Assembly (NCBI GenBank): GCA_041649115.1
Contig: JBAZNT010000001.1
Location: forward strand, 12,325-76,324
Reading direction: 5' to 3'
Length of the DNA: 64,000 nt
Origin: Candidatus Omnitrophota bacterium
Lineage (GTDB): Bacteria > Omnitrophota > Gorgyraeia > Gygaellales > Profunditerraquicolaceae
The notes beneath the pieces are model-generated. The model worked only from the letters and a program-made list of their open reading frames with translations. It was not told the DNA's origin and did not search any database. Both the position numbers and the translations under genes were made by a program. This document shows, one piece after another, positions 19,053 through 62,262 of this stretch. Numbering within the stretch: the first letter of the stretch is position 1; each line of letters opens with the position of its first letter.

Positions 19053-19130
19053 TAGGGACGGTTCTTGAGTTAATCTTAACCTGTCCCCTGAAAAGGGGGC
19101 AGGTTAGCTTTACCTTCAGAACCGTCCCTA
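19053..19130. repeat. nested-hairpin intergenic repeat, copy 1
   Basis: TAGGGACGGTTCT...AACCTGTCCCC-TGAAAA-GGGGGCAGGTT...AGAACCGTCCCTA. It starts 7 nt after the stop of the GGDEF/HD-GYP gene. Confidence 0.9.
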
Positions 19131-19139
19131 CTTTTTTAT

Positions 19140-19167
19140 TTGCCAAATGCGTTATTTCTGATATAAT
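19140..19167 (+). promoter_or_regulatory. candidate promoter for purB
   Basis: TTGCCA (19140-19145), 16-nt spacer, then an extended -10 TGATATAAT (19159-19167). Confidence 0.5.
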
Positions 19168-19218
19168 AAACCCTCTGGCTTTTAAGGGTATCCTAACCGC
19201 TTACTTACAGGAGTGGAT

Positions 19219-20514
19219 ATGATTGAGCGCTATAGCCTGCCTATGATGGCGCGTATCTGGAAAGAGGAATTCAAGTTCCAGACCATGCTGGAGATAGAAC
19301 TCCTTGCCCTGGAAGCCCTTACTATACAAAAGCAAATCCCTCCGGGAGTAGCAGGACGCATCCGCAAAAAAGCACGTTTTAGCCTCTCCAGAATCAAGAA
19401 ATTAGAAGAGAAAACACAACATGATGTAGTAGCGTTCGTTACCGATGTGGCACAAAATATTGGGTCGGATGCAAAATACCTACATTTAGGGTTGACCTCT
19501 TCTGATTTGCTGGACACAACACTTGGGGTTCAATTAACGGCTGCTTCCGATATTCTTATTGAAGACCTGGAGAGTCTATTGCGATTATTGGCTGATAAAT
19601 CCGTAAGGTACAAGGATATGGTATGCATCGGGCGCACCCACGGTATTCATGCCGAACCCACCACTTTCGGCTTAAAGCTTGCGCTTTGGTTTGACGAAAC
19701 GCGCCGCAACCTGAAACGGCTTAAGGATGCGCGGGCAGAGGTTGCCGTAGGCAAGGTCTCCGGGGCTGTCGGAACATATTCTAATGTTGATCCTGCAGTA
19801 GAAGCATATATCTGTAAAAAGTTGAAGCTTAAGGCCGCAGGTATCTCTACCCAGGTAATCCAGCGCGATATCTACGCCTATTACATGACTACCCTTGCCG
19901 TGCTCGCCGCCAGCCTTGAGAAATTCGCTTTAGAGATCCGCCACCTGCAGCGTACCGAGGTGCGCGAAGCGGAGGAGCCTTTTGGCAAAGGACAGAAGGG
20001 TTCTTCTGCCATGCCGCATAAGCGTAATCCCGTAATCTGCGAGAGGATCTGCGGCCTGAGCCGCATCCTGCGCGCCAACGCTGTTGTAGCGCTTGAGAAT
20101 GTTGCCCTCTGGCATGAGCGCGATATCAGCCATTCCTCTGTCGAACGCGTGATTATGCCGGATTCTACTATCGCGCTCGATTATATGCTGCATAAGTTTA
20201 TTGAGGTCTTAAGCGGCATGACGGTATACCCCGAAAGGATGCTTGCTAACCTGGTAGAGACAAGAGGTCTGATATTTTCGCAGCGGGTCCTCCTTACCCT
20301 TATGGAAAAAGGGCTGACCCGTCCGGTTGCTTATGATATAGTGCAGCGCAACGCCTTAAGGTGCTGGCGGGAAGGCAGGGATTTTAAGACCCTGCTGTTA
20401 GCGGATAAGCAAGTAGCGCGTTACCTTAAGCCGCGTGAATTAGAGATGATTTTTGACCTGGATTATTACCTGCGTAATACTGACAGGATTTTTAAAAAGG
20501 TCGGCTTGTTATAA
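19219..20514 (+). CDS. purB: adenylosuccinate lyase
   Basis: N-terminus MIERYSLPMM, GLTSSD, and the signature GSSAMPHKRNP. The SD AGGAG lies 5 nt upstream of ATG 19219. Confidence 0.95.
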   Translation: MIERYSLPMMARIWKEEFKFQTMLEIELLALEALTIQKQIPPGVAGRIRKKARFSLSRIKKLEEKTQHDVVAFVTDVAQNIGSDAKYLHLGLTSSDLLDTTLGVQLTAASDILIEDLESLLRLLADKSVRYKDMVCIGRTHGIHAEPTTFGLKLALWFDETRRNLKRLKDARAEVAVGKVSGAVGTYSNVDPAVEAYICKKLKLKAAGISTQVIQRDIYAYYMTTLAVLAASLEKFALEIRHLQRTEVREAEEPFGKGQKGSSAMPHKRNPVICERICGLSRILRANAVVALENVALWHERDISHSSVERVIMPDSTIALDYMLHKFIEVLSGMTVYPERMLANLVETRGLIFSQRVLLTLMEKGLTRPVAYDIVQRNALRCWREGRDFKTLLLADKQVARYLKPRELEMIFDLDYYLRNTDRIFKKVGLL

Positions 20515-20556
20515 GAGAGAGACTGCTGTCCTTCCTTAAATTCCCTTAAATTATCG

Positions 20557-23460
20557 ATGTTATACCGCATCCAGATTACGGAAAGACCGGGTATTTTTGA
20601 CGCTGTCGGCTCCGGCATTGCCAGGGATATCCGCGACCTCGGCATTAAGGCGGTCGAGTCGGTGCATTTTGCCCAGATTTATAATATCGAAGGAGAGCTT
20701 TCCGTTTCGGATGCCGAGACCATTGCCCGCGAACTGCTGGTAGACAGGCTGACCCAGAATTATATTATTAATGCCCGTCGCAATACTGGCGAGGGTCCTG
20801 ACGAATCCGTGGTGGAAATAGCTTATAACCCCGGCGTAATGGATCCCGTTGAGGATTCGGTCTTGAAGGCTATCAGCGACCTGGGGATTAGAGGCGTACG
20901 TTGCGTTAAGACTGCCAAGAGGTACCTGCTTAAAGGCAGGCTCAACGCGCAGCAGCTAAAGACCATTTCAGAAAAATTGCTCTACAATAAATTAATCCAG
21001 CACAGCGTGGACCTATCTTTGCCGGAAGCTACGGCTCCTGAGATAGCGCCATACCGCTTTAGACTCATTACGGTTGAGTTGTTAGGGGCCGACGATAGAG
21101 AACTTAAAAGAATAAGCAGGGACGGCCAGTTATTCCTGAATCTGGCCGAGATGCAGAGAATCAGGAGGTACTTTAAGGATATCGGACGCAACCCCACCGA
21201 CTGCGAACTGGAGACCGTTGCCCAGACCTGGTCGGAGCACTGCGGGCATAAGACCTTTCGCGGGGACATTGAGTATAAATTCAAAGATAGCCCTCTCGCC
21301 ACCCGTTTCAAGACGCGCAAGATAAAAAATCTCCTTAAGTCTACCATTATGAAGGTAACCCGCGAGCTTGCTAAGCCCTGGTGCGTGTCGGTATTTGAGG
21401 ATAATTCCGGGGTTATCAGGTTTGACGATAAATACAACGTTTGTTTTAAGGTAGAGACCCATAACCATCCTTCGGCGCTGGAGCCGTTCGGAGGCGCCAA
21501 TACCGGTATCGGCGGAGTAATCCGTGATCCTTTGGGAACAGGTCTGGGCGCCAGGCCGTTTTTAAACACCGATGTTTTTTGTTTCGGTCCGACGGATTAT
21601 CCCTTCAGCAAGCTGCCGCCTGGAGTGCTGCATCCCAAGCGGGTAATGAAAGGGGTAGTTTCCGGGGTGCGCGATTACGGGAACAAGATGGGTATTCCTA
21701 CCGTTAACGGCGCGGTGTTATTCCATGAAGGTTTTGTAGGAAATCCCCTCGTTTATTGCGGCACTGCCGGTTTAATACCCAAGGATAAGACCGCCAAGCG
21801 CGTGCGGCCGGGGGATTTGGTGGTAGTGGTTGGGGGCAGGACCGGCAGGGACGGTATCCACGGCGCAACATTTTCTTCGGGAGAGCTGACCCATGAATCC
21901 GAGAGCGTCTCAAGCGGCGCAGTGCAGATCGGAAACCCTATCCAGGAGAAAAAGATGCTCGATACGATTATGGAGGCGCGCGACTTGAACCTTTACAGCG
22001 CCATTACAGATTGCGGCGCCGGCGGCTTATCTAGCGCTGTCGGAGAAATGGGCAAGGATATCGGAGCGCGGGTTGACCTGGAGAAGGTGCCTTTGAAATA
22101 TACGGGCTTATCATATACCGAGATATGGATTTCGGAATCGCAGGAACGCATGGTCTTAGCAGTGCCGAGGAAGAACGCCGGCAGGTTAATCCAAATATTC
22201 AGCCGCGAGGATACGGAGGCCACGGTTATCGGGGAGTTTGTCCCTACCGGGAAGCTCGAGCTTTATTACGAAAGTAACAAGGTCTGCGAGCTGGATATGG
22301 AATTTCTGCATAATGGCTTTCCGCGCCTGAGCAAAAAAGCAGTATACCTTGCCTCCCGCCACCGCGAACCAAGGCTGCAATGCCCTTCGGGATTAACTGA
22401 TACCCTGTTGAAGCTTCTCTCGCGTTATGATGTCTGCTCCAAGGAATGGATTATCAGGCAATACGACCATGAGGTGCAGGGAGGTTCGGTAATCAAGCCC
22501 CTGGCAGGCATCGACAATGACGGGCCTTCGGACGCCGCAGTGGTAAAACCCGTTCTCTGGAGCCCCAGGGCGGTCGTTATTTCCTGCGGTATCAATTTCA
22601 GATACGGTTTTGTCGACCCTTACTGGATGGCGGCCTCCTGCATTGACGAAGCCCTGCGGCAGATTGTTGCAACAGGAGGGTCGCTGAAACAGGCGGCGCT
22701 CCTGGATAATTTCTGCTGGGGTAATCCCGATAAGCCGGATCGGCTGGGGGGGCTCGTGCGGGCAGCGCTGGCATGTTATGACATCGCCAAAGGTTTCGGC
22801 GTGCCTTTTATCTCCGGCAAGGACAGCCTCAATAACGAATATGCGGTAGGAGGCAAATCAATAGCTATCCCCGGCACGCTTTTGATATCCGCCATGGCGG
22901 TGATGGATGACGCAAAGAATGCAGTTTCCATGTATGCCAAGGAGGCGGGGGATTTAATCTATGTCGTAGGCAAGACCTATCATGAGTTAGGAGGCTCACA
23001 TTATTATGACCTTTTAGGTTTTACGGGCAACAGCGTTCCGAAAGTAAATACCCGCATTGCCAGAGAGACATTCTTGAGGTTAAGCCGTGCCTCCGGGTCG
23101 GGGGTTATCAAGGCAATGCACGATTGTTCCGAGGGTGGCTTGGCAGTGGCAGCTGCCGAGATGGCCTTTGCCGGAGGCCGCGGGATGGAACTGTTTCTTT
23201 CCGAGGTGCCTTATTCCGCAAAAGGCAAAAAGAGCAACGATACCGTTTTGTTTTCAGAATCAAATTCCCGTTTTATTGTGGAGGTAGACAGGCGCAGGCA
23301 GAAACAATTTGAGCGGATGCTTGCGGGGGTTCCGTTCGGGCTGATGGGGTGTATATCAGAGGGGAGCGATTTTAAGGTCTGGGGCCTGGATAACAAGCTT
23401 TGCGTATCAACTGATATCGCGAGACTTAAAGAGGCCTGGCAGGCGCCATTGAGGTGGTAA
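20557..23460 (+). CDS. purL: FGAM synthase subunit PurL with two N-terminal PurS-like modules (PurS-PurS-PurL fusion)
   Basis: The PurL core starts near residue 180 (TWSEHCGHKTF, VETHNHPSALEPFGGANTG, GKDSLNNEY). The N-terminal ~175 aa form two ~85-aa segments resembling PurS. Confidence 0.92.
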   Translation: MLYRIQITERPGIFDAVGSGIARDIRDLGIKAVESVHFAQIYNIEGELSVSDAETIARELLVDRLTQNYIINARRNTGEGPDESVVEIAYNPGVMDPVEDSVLKAISDLGIRGVRCVKTAKRYLLKGRLNAQQLKTISEKLLYNKLIQHSVDLSLPEATAPEIAPYRFRLITVELLGADDRELKRISRDGQLFLNLAEMQRIRRYFKDIGRNPTDCELETVAQTWSEHCGHKTFRGDIEYKFKDSPLATRFKTRKIKNLLKSTIMKVTRELAKPWCVSVFEDNSGVIRFDDKYNVCFKVETHNHPSALEPFGGANTGIGGVIRDPLGTGLGARPFLNTDVFCFGPTDYPFSKLPPGVLHPKRVMKGVVSGVRDYGNKMGIPTVNGAVLFHEGFVGNPLVYCGTAGLIPKDKTAKRVRPGDLVVVVGGRTGRDGIHGATFSSGELTHESESVSSGAVQIGNPIQEKKMLDTIMEARDLNLYSAITDCGAGGLSSAVGEMGKDIGARVDLEKVPLKYTGLSYTEIWISESQERMVLAVPRKNAGRLIQIFSREDTEATVIGEFVPTGKLELYYESNKVCELDMEFLHNGFPRLSKKAVYLASRHREPRLQCPSGLTDTLLKLLSRYDVCSKEWIIRQYDHEVQGGSVIKPLAGIDNDGPSDAAVVKPVLWSPRAVVISCGINFRYGFVDPYWMAASCIDEALRQIVATGGSLKQAALLDNFCWGNPDKPDRLGGLVRAALACYDIAKGFGVPFISGKDSLNNEYAVGGKSIAIPGTLLISAMAVMDDAKNAVSMYAKEAGDLIYVVGKTYHELGGSHYYDLLGFTGNSVPKVNTRIARETFLRLSRASGSGVIKAMHDCSEGGLAVAAAEMAFAGGRGMELFLSEVPYSAKGKKSNDTVLFSESNSRFIVEVDRRRQKQFERMLAGVPFGLMGCISEGSDFKVWGLDNKLCVSTDIARLKEAWQAPLRW

Positions 23461-23461
23461 G

Positions 23462-24115
23462 ATGAAGAGACCAGCATTGCACGATGATTTTACCAGCGAG
23501 GATACCTGGCGGATATTCCGCATCATGTCGGAATTTGTGGACGGTTTTGAGGTATTGTCGCAGATAGGCAAGGCCGTATCAATTTTCGGCTCCAGCCGTT
23601 CAAAACCGCACGATAAATATTACAAATTGACCGAGGAGGTTGCGTATCTGCTGGCCAAGAACGGCTTTGCCGTTATCACCGGAGGCGGCCCCGGCATCAT
23701 GGAGGCTGCCAATAAAGGAGCCCGCCGGGCAAAGGGGCATTCCATCGGGCTCAATATCCAGATACCATCGGAGCAGAAACCCAATCCCTACATAGATACC
23801 CTGCTGGATTTCCACTATTTCTTCGTGCGTAAGGTAATGTTTGTAAAATACGCCAAGGCCTTCGTGATTATGCCGGGGGGTTACGGAACGCTGGATGAAT
23901 TTTTTGAAGCCGCTAATCTTATTCAGACGCGCAGGATAAAGCGTTTCCCGGTAGTCCTCTTCGGGAGCAAATACTGGGAAGGGATGATTGGCTGGCTTAA
24001 ACGGGAAGTATTGCGCCAGGGCAATATCAGCCCCGCAGACCTGGATATCTTTAAGGTGGCCGATACCCCGCGGCAGGCAGCGGAAATCGTAAAAAGATTC
24101 TATGAAAAGACCTAA
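23462..24115 (+). CDS. LOG-family (TIGR00730 / lysine-decarboxylase-like) nucleotide phosphoribohydrolase
   Basis: Motifs ITGGGPGIMEAANKGA and MPGGYGTLDEFFE (PGGxGTxxE). Confidence 0.85.
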   Translation: MKRPALHDDFTSEDTWRIFRIMSEFVDGFEVLSQIGKAVSIFGSSRSKPHDKYYKLTEEVAYLLAKNGFAVITGGGPGIMEAANKGARRAKGHSIGLNIQIPSEQKPNPYIDTLLDFHYFFVRKVMFVKYAKAFVIMPGGYGTLDEFFEAANLIQTRRIKRFPVVLFGSKYWEGMIGWLKREVLRQGNISPADLDIFKVADTPRQAAEIVKRFYEKT

Positions 24116-24902
24116 GGCATGTATCTTAAGGACCGCAGGCACCAATTGCGACAGGGAGACCGCATACGCATTCTTAAAGGCCGGCGCGGAGCCCTCGGCC
24201 GTACATATCAACAGTTTTATCAGCGCGCGGGATAAGCTTGATAGTTACCAAATCCTTGCTATCCCGGGAGGTTTTAGCTACGGGGACGATGTTGCAGCCG
24301 GAAAGATCCTGGCAAATGAGTTAAAATGTAAATTGAGGGAGAAGCTAGAGGTTTTTATTAGTTCTGGCAAGCCCATTATCGGCATCTGCAACGGCTTTCA
24401 GGTGCTCATTAAGTGCGGGCTCCTGCCCGGCAACAGCGGCCTTGAACAGGAGGCCAGCCTGTTCATCAACGATTCCGGCAGGTTCGAAGACCGCTGGGTA
24501 TATTTGAAGAATTTTTCCTTTAACCGTAAACAGAAATGCATCTGGACAAAGGGGTTGCCCGGAGTCATTTATCTTCCGGTGGCGCACGGAGAGGGTAAAT
24601 TCGTGGCGCGCAATAAAGAATCCTTGAAGGCGATTAAGAAGAATAGCCAGGTGGTCTTTCAGTATTGCGATCAGGAAGCCGGGCCTGCGGGTTATCCCGC
24701 CAATCCTAACGGCTCACAGGAGAATATCGCCGGGATATGCGATGTGACCGGCAGGATACTGGGGTTGATGCCGCACCCGGAGAGGCACATTGCGAATTTC
24801 CAGCACCCCCGCTGGACCGCAGGAGCCAGACGCTTCGGGTCCGGAGAGGGCGACGGTTTGCTTATTTTTAAGAATGGAGTGGAATATGCCAGAAAACTTT
24901 AA
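24102..24902 (+). CDS. purQ: FGAM synthase glutaminase subunit
   Basis: Class-I amidotransferase with GICNGFQVL (nucleophile Cys) and MPHPER. Confidence 0.92.
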   Translation: MKRPKACILRTAGTNCDRETAYAFLKAGAEPSAVHINSFISARDKLDSYQILAIPGGFSYGDDVAAGKILANELKCKLREKLEVFISSGKPIIGICNGFQVLIKCGLLPGNSGLEQEASLFINDSGRFEDRWVYLKNFSFNRKQKCIWTKGLPGVIYLPVAHGEGKFVARNKESLKAIKKNSQVVFQYCDQEAGPAGYPANPNGSQENIAGICDVTGRILGLMPHPERHIANFQHPRWTAGARRFGSGEGDGLLIFKNGVEYARKL

Positions 24903-26325: not shown

Positions 26326-26327
26326 GG

Positions 26328-27350: not shown

Positions 27351-27383
27351 CGCTAAGAGGTAGCAGCCGGCGCTATGTTGTAC

Positions 27384-27761
27384 CTGACGTAAAAAGGAAT
27401 TACGTCAGTATTCGCCCCGTAGCGAAAATTGCTCCGGCGTTCCGATTTTAATTTACGCCCAAACCTATCGTACCTTGACTTAAAGGAATGTCAAGTACGC
27501 CCTTTCTGGGCTGGATGGTTTGGCGTGCGTCTCTACGATTTACACCCAATCCTAAAGGATGGATTGGTGTTCGCCTCGTGGCGAAATTGCGTTGGTAGCG
27601 CAGAAGCGCACACTTGCCTATCCGGTAAGGCAAGGTGTGTTCTGTCTCTACAGCTAACACCCAACGCCAAGTGGAATTGCGTTGGTGTTCTGTCTCTACA
27701 GCTAACACCCAACGCCAAGTGGAATTGCGTTGGTGTTCTGTCTCTACAGAAGGAGGGTAGG
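27384..27761 (+). ncRNA. highly structured leader or candidate regulatory RNA with GGA-loop hairpins
   Basis: Stem-loops lie at 27384-27408 (loop AAAGGAA), 27474-27495 (loop TTAAAGGAAT), 27546-27567 (loop TAAAGGAT), 27570-27585, 27609-27639, 27661-27685 and 27709-27733 (loops CAAGTGGAATT). The SD AAGGAGGG is at 27750-27757. No credible ORF explains the region. Confidence 0.55.
27637..27749 (+). repeat. 48-bp exact tandem repeat (2.35 units)
   Basis: The unit GTGTTCTGTCTCTACAGCTAACACCCAACGCCAAGTGGAATTGCGTTG starts at 27637 and 27685, and again (truncated) at 27733. A diverged older unit lies at about 27522-27572. Confidence 0.95.
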
Positions 27762-28436
27762 ATGAGGTTTTTAAAGGTATTTTTGGCGTTGGTTTTGATG
27801 TTGCAATTGGCAGCACCGTTTGGCATCTCTGCCGATGATGTCAATGTCAATCTCCTGCTGCAGGAGACGCAGAAAAGAAGCGAGAAGTCAGGCGAGATAA
27901 ATTTCATCTGGTGGATACCCGAGGAATACTGGAGGGCAAGCCTTGCCCAGAATCCCAGCACCACTCCTCAGCAGGTCGATGCGATTGTGAGCGTTTTTAA
28001 GCCTTATGTGGTAGTGGCGGTAGTGGAAGGCAAGGTTGACGTCTCCGGAAACATTGCCTACAACAGCGAGGCGGACATCCGTTCCAAATTGCGGCTTGTC
28101 GATTCTCAAGGAAACGTATATTCTCCGCTTGCCGATGACGGGATAAACGTAAGCACCAAGAGTTTCCTGGCAATGATGAAGCCGATGCTGGCAAATATCC
28201 TTGGCCCCATGGGGCAGAATATGTATTTTTACACATTTGTTGCCAAAGACAAAAACGGGACGGATATCGCTGACCCCAGAAAAGAAGGCGCCTTTAGCGT
28301 AAGGTTGGGCGAGAAGGATTTTAAGTGGGAACTGCCTTTGAGTTCGTTGGTGCCGGAGAAGATATGCCCTAGCTGTAAACGCAAACTAAACGGTACCTAT
28401 AAGTATTGTCCTTTTGACGGGACGCCGCTGCCTTAA
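27762..28436 (+). CDS. hypothetical secreted protein with a C-terminal Cys-rich (zinc-ribbon-like) tail
   Basis: SD plus ATG at 27762, signal peptide MRFLKVFLALVLMLQLAAPFGISA, and the C-terminus CPSCKRKLNGTYKYCPFDGTPL. The 111-codon N-terminal extension in the ORF track is read-through of the in-frame 48-bp repeats. Confidence 0.7.
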   Translation: MRFLKVFLALVLMLQLAAPFGISADDVNVNLLLQETQKRSEKSGEINFIWWIPEEYWRASLAQNPSTTPQQVDAIVSVFKPYVVVAVVEGKVDVSGNIAYNSEADIRSKLRLVDSQGNVYSPLADDGINVSTKSFLAMMKPMLANILGPMGQNMYFYTFVAKDKNGTDIADPRKEGAFSVRLGEKDFKWELPLSSLVPEKICPSCKRKLNGTYKYCPFDGTPLP

Positions 28437-28442
28437 GAGAGA

Positions 28443-37052: not shown

Positions 37053-37568
37053 ATGCTTAATCGCGAAGAATTAGAAAGTTTAATAGTAAAGGACAAGCTC
37101 GTCGAGGGGTACATAGAACTCAAGACGCAGCTTACTCCCAATGGTTTTGACCTCACCGCAGAGAAGATATTCGAATTTGAGGAGGCAGGCGTATTGGACT
37201 TTTCTAATAAGGAGCGCCGTCTCCCCCGGGGGCGTGAGCTCATTCCCCAGAAATCCGCAGCAGAAGACAAATTCGGCTGGTGGGATTTAAAAAAGGGTAT
37301 ATATAAGGTAAGGACGAATGAAGTAGTAAATATGCCTTGTGACCTGGCAGGCCTGGCTTTTACGCGCACTTCATTATTAAGGATGGGGGTTTTTACCCAG
37401 CATGGGGTTTGGGACGCCGGGTTCCGCGGTAAGAGCGAATTCGTCTTAGTAATAGATAACCCTAAGGGCGCTAGAATCAAACAAAACGCCAGGGTGGCGC
37501 AGATGGTTTTCTTAAGGATTAACGAGACGCAAGAGGGCTACCAAGGCATCTACAACAACATAAAGTAG
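37053..37568 (+). CDS. dCTP deaminase / dUTPase-superfamily protein
   Basis: 171 aa with LTPNGFDLT and VWDAGFRGKSEFVLVIDNPKGARIKQNARVAQMVF, a typical Dcd/Dut beta-barrel family pattern. I cannot separate the deaminase and dUTPase subfamilies by eye. Confidence 0.7.
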   Translation: MLNREELESLIVKDKLVEGYIELKTQLTPNGFDLTAEKIFEFEEAGVLDFSNKERRLPRGRELIPQKSAAEDKFGWWDLKKGIYKVRTNEVVNMPCDLAGLAFTRTSLLRMGVFTQHGVWDAGFRGKSEFVLVIDNPKGARIKQNARVAQMVFLRINETQEGYQGIYNNIK

Positions 37569-37641
37569 GGACGGTTCTGAACTCAAAGCTAAAGCGTCCC
37601 TTTTAAGGGGACGGGTTTAGTTCACCTTGAGAACCGCCCCT
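37566..37641. repeat. nested-hairpin intergenic repeat, copy 2
   Basis: TAGGGACGGTTCTGAACTCAAAGCTAAAGCGTCCCTTTTAAGGGGACGGGTTTAGTTCACCTTGAGAACCGCCCCT. Its first three bases are the TAG stop of the dcd-like gene. Confidence 0.9.
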
Positions 37642-37656
37642 GACTGAAGAGGGGAT

Positions 37657-39476: not shown

Positions 39477-41354
39477 TTATCCTTCCCTCAGTTGTTTTTC
39501 CGCATCTACAATATCCCTGTTAATCACGCGTACCGTTTCTTTAATGCGTTCCTTTAAGACGTAGGAAGCTACCTGGGCGTCGTGGATTTCCCTAAGCACT
39601 TGTACGCTCATGCGAAAATAACGGATTACCTCTCCCTCGTCGGTATCCGTGTATTGGAGGATCTTATCGAAGCGCGTGCCCCTGAGCCAGGCCTCCATGC
39701 AGGGGCTTAGATGGAAATAAGGCTTTTTGCTGATAGGGTAAATGCGGTATTTACGTTCCCTTTCTTTTATCTCTTCGTATAATTCATCGCAGGCATTCCT
39801 GATATGGCGGCTGTTTTTGGAGATGTTGGATATGCGCTGGTTCTTGCGCGGCTCAAAGACAACCGCAGCAGCAAGGACCCCAAGCCCGAATTCATCAACC
39901 TGCTCCAGGACATTACGGCTGTAAAGCTCGCTCAATAGCAGCTCGTATCCGTAGACGTTCTTGGCAAATTGCCCTTTATCGGTGAGGTCTCTGTTTTGGA
40001 TATAACCTAATTCCTCCAGGAGATTCAATTTTGCCTGCATGAGCCTCAAGGCTTCTTTCTGTTCGTATTTCTTGGATTGGTAGTAATGCAGGGATGAGGG
40101 GTAAATGTCGAATATCCCCTCTTTGTGTTTTTCGTAAAGGTTGAGCACCGTAGCATAAGAGGTATTTAACTGGCTGCGCACTTCCTCGGGTGGGCTATAG
40201 ATAACCCGTTTTACCTCCTCAAATTTTAGGCGCAGAGGGTTTATGCGGCAGTAGACGAAGCCTTCCTTATCCATCCCGCGCCTGCCTGCGCGTCCCGCCA
40301 TCTGGTAAAAATCCCTGGTTTTAAGCGGCCGCACAAAACGACCGTAGTATTTGCGCAGGTCGTCGAAGATAACCGAACGGCTCGGCATATTTATCCCCAG
40401 CGCAAAGGTCTCGGTAGTGAATATGACCCGTAGTAGGCGGCTGGTAAAAAGCCTTTCGATTACTTCTTTAAGGGTAGGCAGCATGCCGGCATGGTGGTAT
40501 GCGACCCCCTTTTGAACCAAGGGCCTCATCTGGCCGGCAGATTTCTCGTGGGATAGTTCAAAGCGCCTGCAGAGATCGTCGTAATATTCCAGGATTTTCT
40601 CTTTCTCTGCAGTGTCGAGGAAATCGTGGCTATAGACTTCCGAGGCGAGGTCCTCGGCCCGCCGCCTGCCGAAGACAAAGTATATGCAGGGAAGGCCGTT
40701 TTTCTGCTGTACGTATCTAATCAGGGTAGCGAGCTTGTTGGGGCAGCCGTATTTTATTTTTTTAAAATCCGCGAGGTTATTCATTATCTCGTTGCGGCAC
40801 TGGTAGAGAAAATGCAGCGGCACCGGCCTTTTTTCTTCCGTTACGGTTTTGACTGGCCTGCTATGGATGCTTTCAATCCATGATGCAAATTCCCCGATGT
40901 TCGGGATGGTGGCAGAGAGGGCCAGTATATTCATGTGTTTGGGCAGGAATATCAGCGATTCCTCCCAGACAGTGCCGCGCTCCGGATTATCGATATAATG
41001 CACCTCGTCAAAAATAATCCATTCGTAAGCGGCCAGGCTCTCAGGTTCATCGAGGACCTTGTTGCGGAATATCTCGGTAGTCATAATCAGGACCGGCGCA
41101 TGCGGGTTTAGCGAGACGTCCCCCGTTAATATTCCGATATTGTCTCCGTATTCTGCCTGGAAATCGCGGAATTTCTGGTTGGAGAGAGCCTTGATAGGCG
41201 CAGTGTAGATTACTCCGGCTTGCTTTTTAATGCAGGTGGTTATGACGTGCTCGGCAATGGCGGTTTTGCCGGCCCCCGTAGGCGCAGATACGATTACCGA
41301 AAGCCCGTCGTTAATATGATCAATTGCTTCTTGCTGGAATCTGTCGTAAATCAT
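39477..41354 (-). CDS. Ski2/Mtr4/HelY-like superfamily-2 helicase with DSHCT-like C-terminus
   Basis: Helicase motifs APTGAGKT, DEVH (FDEVHYI), SAT, HHAGMLP and QMAGRAGRRG. The C-terminal WLRGTRFDKILQYTDTDEGEVIRYFRMSVQVLREI resembles the DSHCT domain. Confidence 0.82.
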   Translation of the reverse strand: MIYDRFQQEAIDHINDGLSVIVSAPTGAGKTAIAEHVITTCIKKQAGVIYTAPIKALSNQKFRDFQAEYGDNIGILTGDVSLNPHAPVLIMTTEIFRNKVLDEPESLAAYEWIIFDEVHYIDNPERGTVWEESLIFLPKHMNILALSATIPNIGEFASWIESIHSRPVKTVTEEKRPVPLHFLYQCRNEIMNNLADFKKIKYGCPNKLATLIRYVQQKNGLPCIYFVFGRRRAEDLASEVYSHDFLDTAEKEKILEYYDDLCRRFELSHEKSAGQMRPLVQKGVAYHHAGMLPTLKEVIERLFTSRLLRVIFTTETFALGINMPSRSVIFDDLRKYYGRFVRPLKTRDFYQMAGRAGRRGMDKEGFVYCRINPLRLKFEEVKRVIYSPPEEVRSQLNTSYATVLNLYEKHKEGIFDIYPSSLHYYQSKKYEQKEALRLMQAKLNLLEELGYIQNRDLTDKGQFAKNVYGYELLLSELYSRNVLEQVDEFGLGVLAAAVVFEPRKNQRISNISKNSRHIRNACDELYEEIKERERKYRIYPISKKPYFHLSPCMEAWLRGTRFDKILQYTDTDEGEVIRYFRMSVQVLREIHDAQVASYVLKERIKETVRVINRDIVDAEKQLREG

Positions 41355-41357: not shown

Positions 41358-41435
41358 TAGGGAGGGTTCTTAAGGTGAACTAAGCCCGTCCCCTTAAAAG
41401 GGACACTTTAGCTTTGAGTTCAGAACCGTCCCCTA
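41358..41435. repeat. nested-hairpin intergenic repeat, copy 3 (reverse complement of copy 2)
   Basis: TAGGGAGGGTTCTTAAGGTGAACTAAGCCCGTCCCCTTAAAAGGGACACTTTAGCTTTGAGTTCAGAACCGTCCCCTA. It begins 3 nt from the helicase start codon. Confidence 0.9.
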
Positions 41436-42056: not shown

Positions 42057-42620
42057 GTGAAAAGGGTAAGCGTTGTCATTTCCGTTATTCTATTGCTGTT
42101 GACAGTTGCTTTTATCTTTGCATCCGATGAGCCGTTTAAAATTTATAGCAGCGGGGACGGCAAACTCAGCATCCCTTTCGGTAAAGCTTACAATTACTCC
42201 GACATCTATGTCAGGAGGGTCATTGACGGAGATACCATCCAGTTAGAGGACGGGCAACGGGTGCGGTTTATCGGCATTGATACGCCGGAGATGCACGAGT
42301 CTGATAAGCTTTACCGTGACAGCGAGCGGACCGGCCAGGATGTCAAGGCTATCAAAAAGATGGGGCAGCGTTCCTATGAGTTTACCAGGAAGCTGGTGGA
42401 GGGTAAGCGCGTCGGCCTTGAATTTGACGCTGAAAAATACGACAAATACAACAGGCTCCTGGCATATGTTTATTTAAAAGACGGCACATTTGTCAACGCC
42501 GAGATTATCAAAGAGGGCTACGCTTCGCTTCTAACCATACCGCCTAACGTCAGGTATGCGGATTTATTTTCCAAACTTTACCGCCAGGCCCGCGAGGACA
42601 AGCGCGGCCTTTGGCGGTAG
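42057..42620 (+). CDS. thermonuclease (staphylococcal nuclease homologue), secreted or membrane-anchored
   Basis: GTG start after GGGAGG, then an N-terminal hydrophobic helix. Motifs VIDGDTI, VRFIGIDTPE, YNRLLAYVY, ARE..RGLW. Confidence 0.85.
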   Translation: MKRVSVVISVILLLLTVAFIFASDEPFKIYSSGDGKLSIPFGKAYNYSDIYVRRVIDGDTIQLEDGQRVRFIGIDTPEMHESDKLYRDSERTGQDVKAIKKMGQRSYEFTRKLVEGKRVGLEFDAEKYDKYNRLLAYVYLKDGTFVNAEIIKEGYASLLTIPPNVRYADLFSKLYRQAREDKRGLWR

Positions 42621-42628: not shown

Positions 42629-42706
42629 GAGGGACGGTTCTTGGGGTGAAGCTAACCTGTCCCCTTGTTGAGGGACAGGTTAGCTTTGAGTTCAGAACCG
42701 TCCCTA
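42629..42706. repeat. nested-hairpin intergenic repeat, copy 4 (most symmetric copy)
   Basis: Outer stem GGGACGGTTCT/AGAACCGTCCC, inner 14-bp stem AGCTAACCTGTCCC/GGGACAGGTTAGCT, loop CTTGTTGA. It starts 9 nt after the thermonuclease stop. Confidence 0.92.
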
Positions 42707-42735
42707 ACTAAAAAGGGCTAAAAAGGGAGGTATTT

Positions 42736-54716: not shown

Positions 54717-54718
54717 TT

Positions 54719-56809: not shown

Positions 56810-57885
56810 GAATACTGTATCTTGTCAACCACCTCAATATCGGAGGCATCACTAGCTATATCTTATCCCTGGCCTGCGGGATGAAGGCCAGGGGGCATAC
56901 GGTTTATGTCGCTTCCAGCGGCGGGAGGATGGAGGATGACTTAAGGCGCAGAGGCATTGTCTGCATCAGGGCGCCGCTTAACACCAAATCCGAGGCAAGC
57001 CCGCGCTTGCTTTTGAGTTTTTTAAAGCTGCTGCCTCACCTTAAAAAAAACAGCATTGACCTCGTTCATTGTAATACCAGGGTAACGCAGGTATTAGGGT
57101 GTTTCCTGGAGCGTGCCAGCGGGATAGCGCATATTTCCACCTGCCACGGGTTCTTTAAAAGGAGGGCCTCGCGTCTGCTCTTTCCTTGCTGGGGGAGGAA
57201 GGTCATCGCTATCAGCGAGGCGGTACGCGAACACCTGATGAGAGATTTTAGAGTTAATCCCAAAAATATCGTCGTAATCCACAACGGTATTGACGCGGAA
57301 AGGTTTGTGGTCGGAGTTAAGAAAGACCCGGGTTTAGGGCAGGGGCCGGTGGTCGGGATCATCGCGAGACTTTCCGACGTAAAAGGACATGCTTATCTTA
57401 TCCGGGCAATGCAGGAGGTCGTAGCGAGATTACCATCGGCGAGGCTTTTGATTGTGGGTGAAGGCAAAATGAAAAGGGAGCTTATGGAGTTGACGGTAAG
57501 CCTGGGGCTGGAGGAGAGCGTCAGATTTTCACCGGAGGTAAGCGATAGCCGGGATGCCTTATCGGAAATGGACGTGTTTGTCTTGCCTTCCCTGGCAGAG
57601 GGATTGGGCTTAAGCCTGATGGAGGCGATGGCAGCCGGCCTGCCGGTAATCGGCTCCGATATCGGAGGCATCAGAAACCTGATTCAAAATGGATACAACG
57701 GCCTCCTGTTTGAGAGCCGCAACATAGACGCATTGAGCCGGGCGATTTTAGAATTATTGCAGGATCAAGAAAAGAGACAGCGGCTGGGGGCTAACGCCGC
57801 AAGGTTCATCAGGGAGAATTTTTCTCTCTCACGGATGACGGAAGAAACGGAGGAAGTTTATAAAAAATGTTTTGGCGCAGGTTAA
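56806..57885 (+). CDS. glycosyltransferase family 4 (GT-B)
   Basis: MRILYLVNHLNIGGITSY and EGLGLSLMEAMAAGLPVIGSDIGG. The ATG overlaps the upstream stop (ATGA). Confidence 0.85.
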   Translation: MRILYLVNHLNIGGITSYILSLACGMKARGHTVYVASSGGRMEDDLRRRGIVCIRAPLNTKSEASPRLLLSFLKLLPHLKKNSIDLVHCNTRVTQVLGCFLERASGIAHISTCHGFFKRRASRLLFPCWGRKVIAISEAVREHLMRDFRVNPKNIVVIHNGIDAERFVVGVKKDPGLGQGPVVGIIARLSDVKGHAYLIRAMQEVVARLPSARLLIVGEGKMKRELMELTVSLGLEESVRFSPEVSDSRDALSEMDVFVLPSLAEGLGLSLMEAMAAGLPVIGSDIGGIRNLIQNGYNGLLFESRNIDALSRAILELLQDQEKRQRLGANAARFIRENFSLSRMTEETEEVYKKCFGAG

Positions 57886-58676
57886 CGATATTTGTTTTGA
57901 TAATTCTTATGATTCTGGGGGGAGGCGTTTATCTTTGGTTCAATAAGCTGATGCAGGAGCATTACGTGGCACCGATACTGATGTACCACTCTATAAATCC
58001 CAAGAGCGATAAGGTCCTCAGGCGGCTGATAGTAAGTCCCCGCTCCTTTGAGCGCCAGATGCGTTTTTTCAAAGAGCATCGTTATAATGTGATGCCCCTC
58101 GTATCCCTGGCGGCATTAATCCGTGATAAAAAACCCATACCTCCGAAGACCGTCGCCATTACCTTTGACGACGGCTACAGGGATTTTTACACCTACGCCT
58201 TCCCGGTACTTGAAAAATACAGGCTCCCTGCCACGATGTTTATCATTGTGGATGAAGTAGGCCGGTCCGGAGGGGACAGGCTTAGCTGGCAGGAGATCAT
58301 CCGGATGCAGGAATCGGGCCTGGTTACATTTGGCAGCCATGCCATGGGACCGGAGCCGCTCATAAAGATTAAGTCCCCGTCAGAGTTAAAAAGGCAGATA
58401 TTTTTATCCAAGAGGATACTGGAGGAGAAGCTGGGGCAGCGGGTAAAGGCGTTCAGTTATCCCGAAGGGATGTTTAATCCCGTTATCCGGCAGACGGTTA
58501 TTGACGCCGGTTATAAACTCGCGGTAGCTACCCATCCCGGCAGAGACCATCCCGATGACGATGCCTTTGCCCTGAAGAGGCTGAGGATATCTTACAGCTC
58601 CGATAATCTTTTGGTGTTTTGGTTTGAGACGTCCGGGGTATATAATTTTATCCGCGAGTGCGACAAAGACAACTAA
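57867..58676 (+). CDS. polysaccharide deacetylase (NodB/CE4 family), membrane-anchored
   Basis: N-terminal TM helix, ITFDDGYRDFYTYAFPVL, ATMFI, FGSH. Confidence 0.85.
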   Translation: MFWRRLTIFVLIILMILGGGVYLWFNKLMQEHYVAPILMYHSINPKSDKVLRRLIVSPRSFERQMRFFKEHRYNVMPLVSLAALIRDKKPIPPKTVAITFDDGYRDFYTYAFPVLEKYRLPATMFIIVDEVGRSGGDRLSWQEIIRMQESGLVTFGSHAMGPEPLIKIKSPSELKRQIFLSKRILEEKLGQRVKAFSYPEGMFNPVIRQTVIDAGYKLAVATHPGRDHPDDDAFALKRLRISYSSDNLLVFWFETSGVYNFIRECDKDN

Positions 58677-58686
58677 AAAACCAAAG

Positions 58687-59712
58687 ATGTCCAAGCGCAT
58701 ACTTATCTTTAACGTAAACTGGCTGGGTGACGTGCTTTTCTCTACCGCCGTAATCAGAAACCTGCGGCGTAATTTCAGAGAGGGTTATCTGGCCTGTGTC
58801 GTCCCCAGCCGCTGTTACGCCGTCCTGAAAGATAATCCTTACCTGGACGAAATTATTATTTATGACGAGAAGGACAGACACAGAGGCCTTTTGGCAAAAC
58901 TGCGTTTTATCGGCTACCTCAAAAGCAAGAGGTTTGACACCGTTTTCCTGTTGCACCGTTCCGCAAGCAGGGCCTTTATCTGCTGGATGGCAGGGATACC
59001 CGAACGCATAGGTTATTACACCCCCAAACGGGGGTTTCTGCTTACCAAAAGGATTGCGCCCCTGCCTCAGGATAGCCTTCATCGCATTGATTATTATCTT
59101 AATATCATAGAGAAAGCAGGGTTGAGGGTTGAGGATAGGTTCAGCGATTTCTTTGTCAGTGACAATGACCGTGAGGCAGCCGGGCGCTTCCTCGAGACCA
59201 ACGGGGTGGAAGATAATGATTTCCTGGTAGGGATAAATCCCGGGGGCAACTGGATCCCTAAGCGCTGGCCAAAGGGGCATTGGGCGCGCCTGGCCGATAT
59301 GCTGATTGAGAAGCTTGGCGCCAAGGTTATCATTACCGGCAGCCCCTCCGACGCCGCTCTCGCAGGAGAGATCAGGCTTTTGATGAAGGGTAAGCCTTTG
59401 GCCGCCTGCGGTGAAATCAATCTCAAGCAGTTCGCTGCCATGGCGATGAGGATGGATCTATTTATCTCAGCCGACAGCGGTCCGTTACACATTGCCAATT
59501 CTGCGGGGTGTAAGAATATTATTGCTATTTTCGGCCCTACCTCCCTGAAGGTTACCTCGCCGTATCCGTTAAAGAACGTAAATATAATGCAGAAGGAGGT
59601 CGGTTGCGTTATCCCCTGTTATGATAAGGATTGCCGGGATAACCGTTGTATGCAGGCCGTGACGCCGGAAGACGTTTTCCGGCAGGCCGCCGAGATTAAA
59701 AACAAGAGATGA
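58687..59712 (+). CDS. GT9 heptosyltransferase-family glycosyltransferase
   Basis: ILIFNVNWLGDVLFSTAVIRNL, GGNWIPKRWP, ISADSGPLHIANSAG. Confidence 0.85.
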   Translation: MSKRILIFNVNWLGDVLFSTAVIRNLRRNFREGYLACVVPSRCYAVLKDNPYLDEIIIYDEKDRHRGLLAKLRFIGYLKSKRFDTVFLLHRSASRAFICWMAGIPERIGYYTPKRGFLLTKRIAPLPQDSLHRIDYYLNIIEKAGLRVEDRFSDFFVSDNDREAAGRFLETNGVEDNDFLVGINPGGNWIPKRWPKGHWARLADMLIEKLGAKVIITGSPSDAALAGEIRLLMKGKPLAACGEINLKQFAAMAMRMDLFISADSGPLHIANSAGCKNIIAIFGPTSLKVTSPYPLKNVNIMQKEVGCVIPCYDKDCRDNRCMQAVTPEDVFRQAAEIKNKR

Positions 59713-61757
59713 AAATCCTATTTGTTACTTTGAGTAATATCGGGGATGCCATCCTTACCCTTCCTGTTCTGGATAGCCTGCGCAGTAATTTAGCTTCCCC
59801 GCGCATTACGGTAGTAGCTACCAGCCGCACCGGAGAGATATTCCAGGGTGTCCCTGAAGTCGAAGAGGTGATAGTTTACGACAAGCACGCCCCCTTAAGG
59901 GAAAAGATCGCGCTTTTGAGGAGGCTGCGGGAGAAGGGGTTTGATGCGGTAGTGGACCTGCGCAACAGTCTCCTGGGGGTTTTGACCCCGGCCAGGCAGA
60001 AGACCTCTTCTCTCCTGCATCCGCCGGCCGCGATAAGGCACATGAAGGACAGGCATCTTTATAAAATCAGCCGCATTATCAGTAAATTGAAAGATAAGAA
60101 TGCTGCCAGCCGCGGCAGTATGCTTGGGGCGAGGCCGGAGGATGAGGATTACATCAACAGGCTCCTGGAGGGATGCGGTATTTCCTCCCGGGATAAGATT
60201 GTCGTTGTAGGTGCGGGGGCCAGAAGCAACACCAAGAGGTGGCCGAGCGATAAATTTCTGGAGCTGGCCGCTGAGCTCGTCAGGGAATTGCGTCTTGCGG
60301 TCATTCTCTCCGGAGACAAAGGCGACGCGCCGACCAACAGCTATATCAGTCAACGTATCGGAGACGGCGTCTTTGACTTCTCGGGATTGACTACTATCCC
60401 GCAACTGGCATCTCTTATCAGGAGGGCGATGGTCGTTGTCACTAACGACAGCGCCCTGCTGCATCTGGCAAGCTACTTAGATGTGCCTGTGGTTGCCATA
60501 TTCGGACCGACCGATGAGGATAAATACGGCCCCTGGTCGCAAAATAAGGCGGTGGTAAAAAAAGATATCTTCTGCCGGCCGTGCCAGAAGGCCCAGTGCC
60601 GTTACTCTTCGCTTAAATGCCTGCAGATTATAAGTGTAGAGGATGTCATGCGCCAGGTGAGGAAGATGGTTGACCCGCAGGCCAGAGAGGCGGCATTGCG
60701 TCCAAATGCCCCCGGTAAGGATTTTAAGCGCATCTTAGTGGTGCGTACCGACAGGATAGGGGACGTAGTTCTTTCTACTCCCGTCATCAGGGCGCTCAGG
60801 GATAGTTATCCGCATGCCTATATCGCGATGATGGTCTCTGCCTATGCCAAGGATGTAGTAGAAGGCAATCCCTGCCTTGACGAGGTGATTATTTACGATA
60901 AGGAAGCCGAGCATAAGGGCTGGCTTGGCAGTTTCAAGTTCGCCAGAAACCTCAAGAAAAAAAGGTTTGAGCTGGCGTTGATTCTGCACCCTGCCAACCG
61001 GGCGCATCTGGTTACTTTTATCGCCGGCATACCCATGCGCGTAGGATATGACCGTAAATTAGGATTCCTGCTTAGCGATAAGGTTAAACACCTCAAGCAC
61101 CTCGGCCAGAAACACGAGCTGGAATACAATCTTGATCTTTTGCGTTACCTGGGCATCGAGGCAGATGATAAAAAAACATTTATGCCTATAAAAGCGGAGT
61201 CAGAACGCTGGGTTGAGAATGTATTGCTAAAAGAAGGGGTAAAACCAGCTGATAAACTCTTGGCTTTGCATCCGGGCGCCAGTTGTCCTTCTAAGATCTG
61301 GCCTTCGGGAAGATTCGCCGAGGTCGCCGATAAATTATCGTTGAAGCACGGTCTCAAGGTTATCATCCTGGGCGGTCCGAAGGATGCTGTTTTGGCCGGG
61401 AGGCTCGCAGGCCAGATGCGCACGAAGGCCTTTAACCTGGCAGCAAAGACATCAGTCAGTCAACTGGCAAGCATCATCAGGCGCTGCAGGCTTTTTATAT
61501 CCAATGATTCCGGGCCGGTGCATATCGCCTCTGCAGTAGGCACGCCGGTGATATCGATATTCGGACGTTCGCAGGAGGGCTTAAGCCCGAGGCGCTGGGG
61601 GCCATTAGGGCTAAAGGATAGAATACTGCATACAAAGGTGGGTTGCATTGAATGCCTGGCGCATAATTGCACGAAAGATTTCGCCTGTCTTAAGGCAATC
61701 GGCGTAGATGACGTTTTGGCTGCCGCAGATTCCATTCTTAGAGATGGAGGGGGCTAA
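59709..61757 (+). CDS. tandem GT9-GT9 double heptosyltransferase-family protein
   Basis: It contains two complete GT9 modules. The first runs MKILFVTLSNIGDAILTLPV...VTNDSALLHLASYLDVP. The second runs ILVVRTDRIGDVVLSTPVIRAL...ISNDSGPVHIASAVGTP. Confidence 0.85.
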   Translation: MKILFVTLSNIGDAILTLPVLDSLRSNLASPRITVVATSRTGEIFQGVPEVEEVIVYDKHAPLREKIALLRRLREKGFDAVVDLRNSLLGVLTPARQKTSSLLHPPAAIRHMKDRHLYKISRIISKLKDKNAASRGSMLGARPEDEDYINRLLEGCGISSRDKIVVVGAGARSNTKRWPSDKFLELAAELVRELRLAVILSGDKGDAPTNSYISQRIGDGVFDFSGLTTIPQLASLIRRAMVVVTNDSALLHLASYLDVPVVAIFGPTDEDKYGPWSQNKAVVKKDIFCRPCQKAQCRYSSLKCLQIISVEDVMRQVRKMVDPQAREAALRPNAPGKDFKRILVVRTDRIGDVVLSTPVIRALRDSYPHAYIAMMVSAYAKDVVEGNPCLDEVIIYDKEAEHKGWLGSFKFARNLKKKRFELALILHPANRAHLVTFIAGIPMRVGYDRKLGFLLSDKVKHLKHLGQKHELEYNLDLLRYLGIEADDKKTFMPIKAESERWVENVLLKEGVKPADKLLALHPGASCPSKIWPSGRFAEVADKLSLKHGLKVIILGGPKDAVLAGRLAGQMRTKAFNLAAKTSVSQLASIIRRCRLFISNDSGPVHIASAVGTPVISIFGRSQEGLSPRRWGPLGLKDRILHTKVGCIECLAHNCTKDFACLKAIGVDDVLAAADSILRDGGG

Positions 61758-61764
61758 ATAAATT

Positions 61765-62184
61765 ATGCCGGAATTCGGGGTCGGTCTTAAAAAGGAAAAG
61801 ATGTTGCATGATAAGATGCGCCAGCTGGGGGTAAGAGAAGATGATATCGTCGAGAAATTCAGCCGTTCCCAGGGTCCTGGCGGACAGAATGTCAATAAGA
61901 CCTCCACTTCCGTCTGGCTTAAACATATCCCCAGCGGCATACAGGTGAAATGCCAGCAGGAGCGTTCCCAGGCACTTAACCGTTATATAGCCCGCAGGAT
62001 CCTTTTAAATAAGATTGAAAATGTGGTATTAGGGAGGCTTTCCGAGGAGAGGAAGCGCATTGAGAAAATACGCAGGCAGAAGCGCAGGCGTTCGCGCAGG
62101 GCGAAGATAAAGATATTGGAAGCCAAGCGCCGCCAGGCAGAAAAGAAGCTGTTACGCCAGAAGGTTTCAGGTCCCGATTATTAA
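61765..62184 (+). CDS. arfB: ArfB-like peptidyl-tRNA hydrolase (mini release factor with GGQ motif and basic tail)
   Basis: RSQGPGGQNVNKTSTSV...CQQERSQ..N followed by a Lys/Arg-rich C-terminal tail. 139 aa. Confidence 0.75.
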   Translation: MPEFGVGLKKEKMLHDKMRQLGVREDDIVEKFSRSQGPGGQNVNKTSTSVWLKHIPSGIQVKCQQERSQALNRYIARRILLNKIENVVLGRLSEERKRIEKIRRQKRRRSRRAKIKILEAKRRQAEKKLLRQKVSGPDY

Positions 62185-62185
62185 G

Positions 62186-62262
62186 CAGGGACGGTTCTGA
62201 AGTTGTTCTTAACCTGTCCCCGGGCAGGGGACGGGTTAGCTTCACCTCAGGAACCGCCCCTG
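62186..62262. repeat. nested-hairpin intergenic repeat, copy 5
   Basis: CAGGGACGGTTCTGAAGTTGTTCTTAACCTGTCCCCGGGCAGGGGACGGGTTAGCTTCACCTCAGGAACCGCCCCTG. It starts 2 nt after the arfB-like stop. Confidence 0.9.

Follow-up and report, generated by a model that had tools for sequence, protein, structure and literature searches.

Repetitive extragenic palindromic (REP) sequences arranged as REPINs, together with the REP-associated tyrosine transposases (RAYTs), are known from Pseudomonas fluorescens SBW25 (Bertels and Rainey 2011; PMC3116915, PMC3337134). A second group, the TIRYTs, consists of RAYT-like Y1 genes flanked by inverted repeats that contain the motif GGGGWSAS, i.e., GGGG[AT][CG]A[CG] (Di Nocera et al. 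2013, PMC3733652), and the Y1 subclass 2.1, characterized by a C-terminal helix-turn-helix (HTH), is the equivalent of the TIRYTs (Quentin et al. 2018, PMC6006769). The published cases of TIRtrons and TIRYTs are mainly from Proteobacteria, Acidobacteria and Planctomycetes (PMC3733652, PMC6006769). The present analysis concerns a family of five nested palindromic repeats in a 64-kb stretch of DNA from Candidatus Omnitrophota (hereafter, the window) and the relatives of these repeats in other genomes.

The five repeats are probably non-autonomous palindromic elements of the REP/REPIN type, from the world of the RAYT/TIRYT (Y1 HUH) transposases, that have settled in the short intergenic spacers of Omnitrophota. 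Most likely, they are no new regulatory RNA but mobile DNA of an ordinary, non-autonomous kind. The original prediction, which was made from the window sequence, had recognized no described family in them. This was too strong a statement, in view of their REPIN architecture and of an arm motif that fits the GGGGWSAS of the repeats flanking TIRYT/RAYT genes (PMC3733652, PMC6006769). As far as the literature shows, the kind of element is known, and the novelty resides in the host phylum, in the nested four-motif form and in the hairpins that display GGGGACGGTTCT in their loop beside the genes of a Clostridia-rich RAYT clade. A full-text search of the literature for the 11-nt arm motif returned unrelated primers only, and a search that combined Omnitrophota with REP returned nothing.

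Nested architecture and spread of the repeats

Each element is built from four copies of a single motif of ∼10 nt, GGGAC(R)G(G)TT, in the order -> <- -> <-. The outer arms consist of the 11-mer GGGACGGTTCT and the inner arms of GGGGACAGGTT; the inner stem (AACCTGTCCC / GGGACAGGTT) is a degenerate version of the outer arms (GGGACGGTTCT / AGAACCGTCCC). The element as a whole is thereby a head-to-head doublet of an imperfect palindrome of ∼35 nt, GGGACGGTTCT-spacer-(A)CCTGTCCC, and the order of the motifs, with two imperfect palindromes in inverted orientation, is that of the REPIN layout (PMC3337134). The nested architecture proposed at the outset was correct, with outer arms of 11-12 bp, an internal loop, an inner stem of 10-14 bp and an apical loop of 5-8 nt. 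When oriented alike, the five copies showed a mean column identity of 80%, with invariant blocks at the arms. Every copy folded into a long interrupted (imperfect) hairpin, both as RNA (-29 to -54 kcal/mol, z -2.9 to -11.5) and as DNA (-16 to -30 kcal/mol, z -3.5 to -9.3), while the two halves of copy 4, taken alone as DNA, formed 9-bp bulged hairpins (-6.3 and -6.4 kcal/mol, z -2.2 and -3.5).

A covariance model built on 75 related elements from other genomes detected exactly five strong loci in the window (51-77 bits, E 1e-11 to 9e-19), which bore out the predicted family and its coordinates, and in a repeat search of the window the same five copies were recovered, in families of direct and of inverted repeats. 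As DNA, the element is palindromic, and the model scores it on both strands; the strands given below follow a convention, in which the half with the CAAAGCT spacer is placed first.

In order to follow the family further, a set with one genome for each bacterial species was scanned for the arms at the right spacing. More than 113 stretches were among the matches listed, which likewise included 79 nested elements of the window type in at least 20 metagenome-assembled genomes (MAGs), nearly all of which are labelled Candidatus Omnitrophota. The retrieved slices of one MAG contained at least 16 elements. In the Omnitrophota MAG JBAZKK01, the flanks are 88-89% identical to those in the window, with the gene order kept. 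Spacer sequence and loop length differ among the subfamilies (apical loop, 3-19 nt), and the half types combine as homo- and hetero-dimers. Moreover, the GGGACGGTTCT 11-mer was observed in another layout (tandem units and short hairpins) in Lachnospiraceae, Blautia, Clostridia, Bacteroidales, Elusimicrobia and some Omnitrophota MAGs, and motif arrays with the loop-hairpin layout were present inside Omnitrophota MAGs at loci L022, L026, L047, L051, L080, L109 and L113. A blastn search of copy 4 against plasmid and phage collections gave no match. In an Rfam scan of the window, a tRNA-Met alone passed the gathering threshold, and a permissive scan of copies 3 and 4 returned chance matches far under threshold.

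The elements share several features with the SBW25 REPINs. In both, inverted imperfect palindromes and a spacer form one hairpin of 70-90 nt; tens or more of extragenic copies occur per genome; singlets resemble decayed doublets, and the doublets are better conserved than their surroundings; homo- and hetero-dimers and several spacer-length classes exist; and the repeat motif is tied to a family of Y1 transposases. In contrast to the SBW25 REPINs, the Omnitrophota elements lack the GTAG tag (position -3 is G in 17% of the ends) and carry a motif of the GGGGWSAS type. Their host is not a proteobacterium, no RAYT of the same genome was found in the window and ∼0.6 Mb of Omnitrophota slices, and the associated transposases are ∼250 aa long with an HTH tail, as opposed to the ∼165 aa of classical RAYTs. 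The elements also share with the TIRtrons the occurrence, in some genomes, of dispersed families as dimers or clusters. Their inner arms (GGGGACAG and GGGGACAC) match GGGGWSAS exactly, and their outer arms (GGGGACGG or AGGGACGG) differ from the TIRtron consensus at one position. With the REP sequences and bacterial interspersed mosaic elements (BIMEs) of E. coli, they have in common that both are extragenic palindromes, often in inverted pairs and often close past stop codons, and tied to a Y1 enzyme, in E. coli TnpA-REP; there is, however, no relationship in sequence or GTAG tag, and the linker motifs and IHF sites of BIMEs were not seen here.

Two further assignments were considered and rejected. 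Membership in the GTAG-tagged REP superfamily (Di Nocera 2013) is contradicted by ends that read N-Y-A-G, with G in 17%. The CGTC-tagged REPs, suggested by the CGTC in the reverse complement of the motif, were discarded on account of their 8-9-bp AT-started stems, 4-5-nt loops, CCA tails and lack of a transposase link.

Motif-linked Y1 transposases and flanking bases of the elements

The connection to a transposase family was provided by a Lachnospiraceae locus (L067), in which arrays of the 11-mer bracket an open reading frame (ORF) of 251 aa. Its product matches the Pfam family Y1_Tnp PF01797 (IS200-like) with an E value of 2e-12, above the curated cut-off, and its best NCBIfam match is the REP-associated tyrosine transposase, below the cut-off of that model. 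The family of this protein comprises more than 7,000 clusters (90% clustering) at E below 1e-10, and in protein-database searches its named members are designated transposase, RayT or REP-associated tyrosine transposase. The family proteins, of ∼250 aa, have a C-terminal HTH and a conserved C-terminal segment, ...SIRQISRLTG.... In their flanking motif and C-terminal HTH, proteins of the L067 type match the RAYT/TIRYT enzymes of Y1 subclass 2.1.

The search for a RAYT, which had been recommended in the original prediction, proved to be a productive lead in other phyla. In 51 of 80 metagenome loci selected by similarity to the L067 protein alone, GGGACGGTTCT (with at most one mismatch) was located within 400 bp of the gene, compared with a chance estimate of ∼0.01 per locus. 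Typically, one copy lies ∼70 nt ahead of the gene and a second, inverted one ∼15 nt past its end. At these transposase loci the motif forms the loop of a hairpin, the stems of which are lineage-specific (e.g., GAGTCAA/TTGACTC, GGAGACAG/CTGTCTCC and TGTCAA/TTGACA), and a perfect stem of at least 5 bp was present at 102 of 148 motif sites versus 7 of 400 control positions. Where a family member does without the exact 11-mer, a variant occupies that position, e.g., GGGGACAGGTTCC, GGGGACGGGTTCC or GGGGACAGATCT, the first of which is the inner-arm sequence of the window copies. The display of the motif in a hairpin loop beside most genes of this Clostridia-rich clade contrasts with the survey of Quentin et al. 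(PMC6006769), in which no REP-like hairpins were reported by genes of subclass 2.1.

Sporomusa silvacetica DSM 10669 encodes at least two RAYT-like members of the family (proteins P0340 and P0348); unlike the classical RAYTs, the family is thus not always single-copy.

The bases next to the elements bear on a different kind of mobility. In the original prediction, the TA on both sides of copies 1 and 3, which is indeed present (copy 2 has TA/TG, copy 5 CA/TG and copy 4 GA/TA), was taken to fit the target-site duplication of a miniature inverted-repeat transposable element (MITE). According to this explanation, the repeats would be MITEs of an IS630/Tc1-mariner DDE transposon that inserts at and duplicates TA, with the outer arms as terminal inverted repeats and the transposase supplied in trans. 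TA/TA is in fact the commonest pair of flanks (24 of about 70 elements), and the comparison of locus L049 with the empty locus L104, aaaTA[GGG...CCC]TAA versus aaaTAA, permits a TA insertion, as does that of copy 3 with its empty counterpart in L039; the available empty sites are too diverged to place the junction to the nucleotide. Over the 79 elements, however, the flanks read YA...TR, with A in position -1 in 89% of the ends and, in position -2, T in 54% and C in 39%; position -3, which holds the G of the GTAG tag, is T in 52%. The TA/TA pairs were followed by TA/TG and CA/TA (12 each), CA/TG (9) and CA/CA (1), in the proportions that independent ends would give. Since a left CA pairs with TG or TA, and with CA only once, the pattern is inverted and not a direct repeat. 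Rather than a duplicated TA, YA...TR is more plausibly a segment of the element itself, or a constraint that acts at each end, and the proposed target-site duplication was not upheld.

Other observations point in the same direction. Neither a transposase of any kind, including a DDE enzyme with matching termini (YAGGGACGGTTCT), nor a pair of motifs at the spacing of an insertion sequence was seen beside the elements in the loci compared (Omnitrophota sequence of ∼0.6 Mb); the genes that the motif brackets in the 51 loci mentioned above are Y1, not DDE, genes; and the four-motif doublet with its half elements is typical of REP/REPIN sequences and not of MITEs. A MITE origin is therefore considered quite unlikely. 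The Correia elements of Neisseria offer a similar contrast: they are likewise small, with terminal inverted repeats, frequent TA at the ends and positions next to genes, but they measure 100-155 bp, have unrelated termini and are DDE-derived, whereas the flanks here read YA...TR and the arm motif is linked to Y1 enzymes.

A number of points weigh against the assignment of the repeats to the REP/REPIN type with a Y1 enzyme. No Y1 gene was detected in the 64-kb window or in the ∼0.6 Mb of Omnitrophota slices by profile HMM in six frames or by tblastn with the L067 protein, the only match being L067 itself. Among the best 120 protein hits, obtained with the L067 protein and two profiles of divergent members, none was labelled Omnitrophota, and the named hits were from Bacillota or Chloroflexota. 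The motif lies in a hairpin loop beside the transposase genes, and is base-paired in the stems of the window elements. The identity of 11 nt across phyla could in principle be due to convergence. The terminal TA, together with TA[GGG...CCC]TAA at stop codons, would also fit a DDE transposon that duplicates TA. Finally, the scan pattern demanded exact outer arms, such that the invariance of the outer stem is an ascertainment effect and not a constraint. Inverted copies that bracket an HTH-tailed Y1 gene were seen in the Clostridia-rich clade (L067 and the 51 of 80 loci) and in no Omnitrophota genome, and tblastn with the E. coli RAYT YafM as query found no significant match in the window or in any of the loci.

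Placement at gene ends and orthologous sites

The tendency of the repeats to lie at gene ends, suggested by the window copies, was found to be real throughout the family. Among 66 classified elements, 63 were intergenic and 3 were inside a called ORF. The elements were distributed among co-directional (53 of 66), divergent (7 of 66) and convergent (3 of 66) contexts, compared with 383, 54 and 58, respectively, of 495 spacers. The contexts of the elements thus mirror the available spacers, with no excess at convergent ends. In the 53 co-directional pairs, the median distance is 6 nt from the stop codon to the start of the element and 17 nt from its end to the next start codon. Of these pairs, 40 have the element nearer to the stop than to the following start (p = 2.7e-4), and in 39 its start is within 12 nt of the stop. 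In eight cases, the terminal TA and the first G of the element constitute the TAG of the upstream gene. ORF calling was crude; since starts were, if anything, called too far upstream, the asymmetry towards the stop is a conservative estimate. Such placement fits survival only where the downstream ribosome-binding site is spared, and it also fits insertion at the TA of stop codons.

The same placement could be expected of an expression element selected by the host, i.e., an RNA hairpin near the stop that guards the mRNA from 3' exonucleases, attenuates read-through in operons or slows terminating ribosomes. E. coli REPs reportedly protect against exonucleases, attenuate read-through and slow termination. 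In addition to the proximity to stop codons, this explanation is favored by the very stable RNA hairpins, by the run of T residues after copy 1 and by three orthologous pairs, in which the elements are 93-97% identical and their mostly coding flanks 81-90% (a small sample, in which the outer arms are fixed by the pattern). However, neither folding nor orientation favored the transcribed strand. In elements between co-directional genes, the more stable fold was the sense one 28 times and the antisense one 25 times (Wilcoxon p = 0.81), the number of G-U pairs was 96 in the sense and 94 in the antisense folds, and both orientations occurred relative to transcription (17 to 11 and 6 to 3 in two subfamilies). 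Overall, nothing points to selection for an RNA of one strand. What is invariant are sequence motifs: in pair counts from the 75-sequence alignment, the sequence blocks were invariant, covariation was slight, and one pair of the inner stem was mismatched in about half of the elements. Covariation was dismissed as a proof of RNA structure: with an outer stem dictated by the search pattern and an inner stem that is for the most part invariant, the test is hardly informative. Some copies, e.g., copy 3, are at 5' ends, and orthologous sites were found empty, half-filled or flipped with no visible change in the genes. A host-selected expression element is therefore regarded as unlikely. The conclusion that the repeats are not plain intrinsic terminators was sustained by the T-run at copy 1 only, the lack of strand bias and the lack of enrichment between convergent genes. 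By analogy with the REPs of E. coli, effects on the expression of neighboring genes, e.g., protection of mRNA 3' ends or slowed termination, are possible.

The states of the orthologous sites illustrate the history of the insertions. At the site of copy 4, locus L069 carries a full element in the flipped orientation (5707-5781; the best match was 86% when flipped versus 74%), L039 a half element and L030 an internally deleted element, and L081 is empty. A half element was also present at an orthologous site in L057. The site of copy 3 is empty in L039, while that of copy 2 is filled in the same locus, which is from a distant relative. Flipping was observed in two of seven orthologous pairs, namely copy 4 with L069, and L009 (7558-7628) with L044 (2203-2271); at these sites the flanks are 88-91% identical and the element is in the opposite internal orientation. 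This implies that the element either flipped in place, between its outer inverted arms, or was replaced at that site. Remnant singlets together with doublets that are better conserved, as is characteristic of REPINs, were both found here, on a small sample.

The elements could alternatively represent clustered duplex sites for a DNA-binding protein (nucleoid-associated or HTH), which would be bound as two dimers, with the hairpin being incidental. Four motifs of ∼10 nt at fixed spacing, a conserved sequence with pairs that do not covary, and the conserved C-terminal HTH of the associated transposase family (PMC6006769) would suit such sites. Nevertheless, the window yielded no candidate for such a protein, the spacers differ from one subfamily to another, the apical loop varies as well, and a required operator would not be expected in half, deleted or empty states at orthologous sites. 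This explanation, which overlaps with the assignment to the REP/REPIN type if the binding protein is the transposase itself, is highly improbable.

If the repeats are indeed REP/REPIN-type mobile DNA, their life cycle may be envisaged as follows. The single-stranded DNA of an element would fold as one long hairpin or as two short ones, which a Y1 enzyme would recognize, probably at replication forks; the enzyme would then cut at the element boundaries and move or copy (reinsert) the doublet. Insertions would survive only in tiny intergenic spacers, mostly just past a stop codon and ahead of the next ribosome-binding site, and copies would for this reason appear to be placed at gene ends. That a Y1 enzyme mobilizes the Omnitrophota elements is inferred from the shared motif, and the single-strand mechanism is modeled on the IS200/IS605 and RAYT enzymes.

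A more far-reaching proposal is that the elements are not merely parasites but a maintained component of operon junctions in the small and compact Omnitrophota genomes, located a few nucleotides past stop codons and more uniform than the coding DNA beside them. They might persist with no resident transposase, would then be moved, flipped or homogenized by a Y1 enzyme acquired from or supplied by other bacteria, and would have a host-level role in translation termination or mRNA processing. We consider this very unlikely. Were this cross-phylum proposal true, the Clostridia-centered RAYT family, the recognition motif of which is identical, would be the candidate source of the enzyme, and a cross-phylum REPIN-RAYT relationship with a host-level role would follow.

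The five copies and their surroundings

All five copies in the window are intergenic, and two orientations are represented, one by copies 2 and 5 and the opposite one by copies 1, 3 and 4. The original prediction placed the start of four copies 0-9 nt after a stop codon. This holds for copies 1, 4 and 5; it does not hold for copy 3, as the TAA near it (41347-41349) is inside the 5' end of the minus-strand helicase gene.

Copy 1 (19053..19130, minus strand; 77.1 bits with the covariance model), a REPIN-like nested hairpin, is located 6 nt past the TAG stop of a GGDEF/HD-GYP gene (15600-19046), and 84 nt separate its end from the adenylosuccinate lyase gene. It is the only one of the five window copies that is followed by a T-run. 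Copy 2 (37566..37642, plus strand; 74.3 bits) supplies, as predicted, the stop codon of the dcd-like gene (37053-37568), the TAG of which (37566-37568) consists of the terminal TA and the first G of the element; in the L039 ortholog, that gene stops 4 nt before the element. The end of copy 2 is 14 nt from the Macro/NUDIX gene (37657). Copy 5 (62186..62262, plus strand; 62.9 bits) lies 1 nt past the TAA stop of the gene for an RF-1-domain (ArfB-like) protein (61765-62184), and the palindrome at its CA...TG flanks runs further outwards (TTAAGCA / TGCTTAA).

Copy 3 (41358..41435, minus strand; 63 bits) is the most degenerate copy and occupies the divergent spacer that separates a DUF3786 gene from the DEAD/DSHCT helicase gene on the minus strand (39477-41354). 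It lies 3 nt upstream of the helicase ATG (41352-41354), between this start codon and a promoter-like TAGATA-16-TATAAT (41464-41437, minus strand). In the empty L039 ortholog, the TATAAT is 6 nt from the helicase ATG, which suggests a leaderless helicase transcript in L039. Judging from these sequences, the insertion of copy 3 may have turned a near-leaderless helicase transcript into one with a hairpin leader of ∼80 nt, devoid of a Shine-Dalgarno sequence.

Copy 4 (42629..42706, minus strand; 73.2 bits) is situated between an SNase-like gene (stop at 42618-42620), 8-9 nt past the stop of which it starts, and the chorismate synthase gene (42736). Its outer arms are GGGACGGTTCT (42631-42641) and AGAACCGTCCC (42694-42704), and its inner arms (42651-42664 and 42672-42685) enclose a loop at 42665-42671. 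Immediately after this copy, CTAAAAAGGG is tandemly duplicated (42708-42727), overlapping the ribosome-binding region of chorismate synthase; the L069 ortholog has a single copy of this sequence.

The next match of the covariance model in the window (3813-3875, 22.7 bits) was rejected as a sixth copy, on the grounds of its weak score and of its identity as a different, unrelated 23-bp tandem repeat. The latter (3837-3897) comprises 2.7 copies of the unit GGGAAACTGTTTCTGCTTTAAGA, with three copies of GGAAASTGTTTC, and is located in a divergent intergenic region, flanked by genes that end at 3734 (minus strand) and start at 3996 (plus strand); it has the appearance of an operator. Another tandem repeat, a perfect one of 48 bp (27637-27749; 2.4 copies, 100% identity), is contained in the ORF at 27429-28436 and represents either an in-frame duplication of 16 residues or an assembly artefact.

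The window also contains a tRNA-Met (CAT) followed by a canonical intrinsic terminator, AAAAAGGCAGCC...GGCTGCCTTTTTCTTTT (5681-5800), which is unlike the elements and shows what real terminators look like in this genome. In the Omnitrophota MAG SO_2017_LW3_37, a Cys-rich ORF of 181 aa (L051, 230-1210) is surrounded by two copies, at a distance of ∼0.85 kb, of a tRNA 3' end with the hairpin AAAAAAGGGGACGGTTCTATTTTTT...AAAAAATAGAACCGTCCCCTTTTTT, which in this genome has the form of a two-way terminator. The arrangement resembles a small integrated islet.

Nearly all work on REPIN-RAYT systems has concerned Proteobacteria, and a REPIN-like family is now evident in the uncultivated, small-genome Omnitrophota, where it is tied by sequence to a very large RAYT/TIRYT clade of more than 7,000 proteins at 90% clustering. 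That clade, for which the prior survey had indicated no REP-like structures, gains a candidate recognition element, namely the loop motif GGGGACGGTTCT in a hairpin with variable stems. For the annotation of Omnitrophota genomes, the family explains a recurrent intergenic feature that could be mistaken for terminators or small RNAs, and its elements may supply a stop codon, as in the dcd-like gene, or part a promoter from its start codon, as in the helicase gene.

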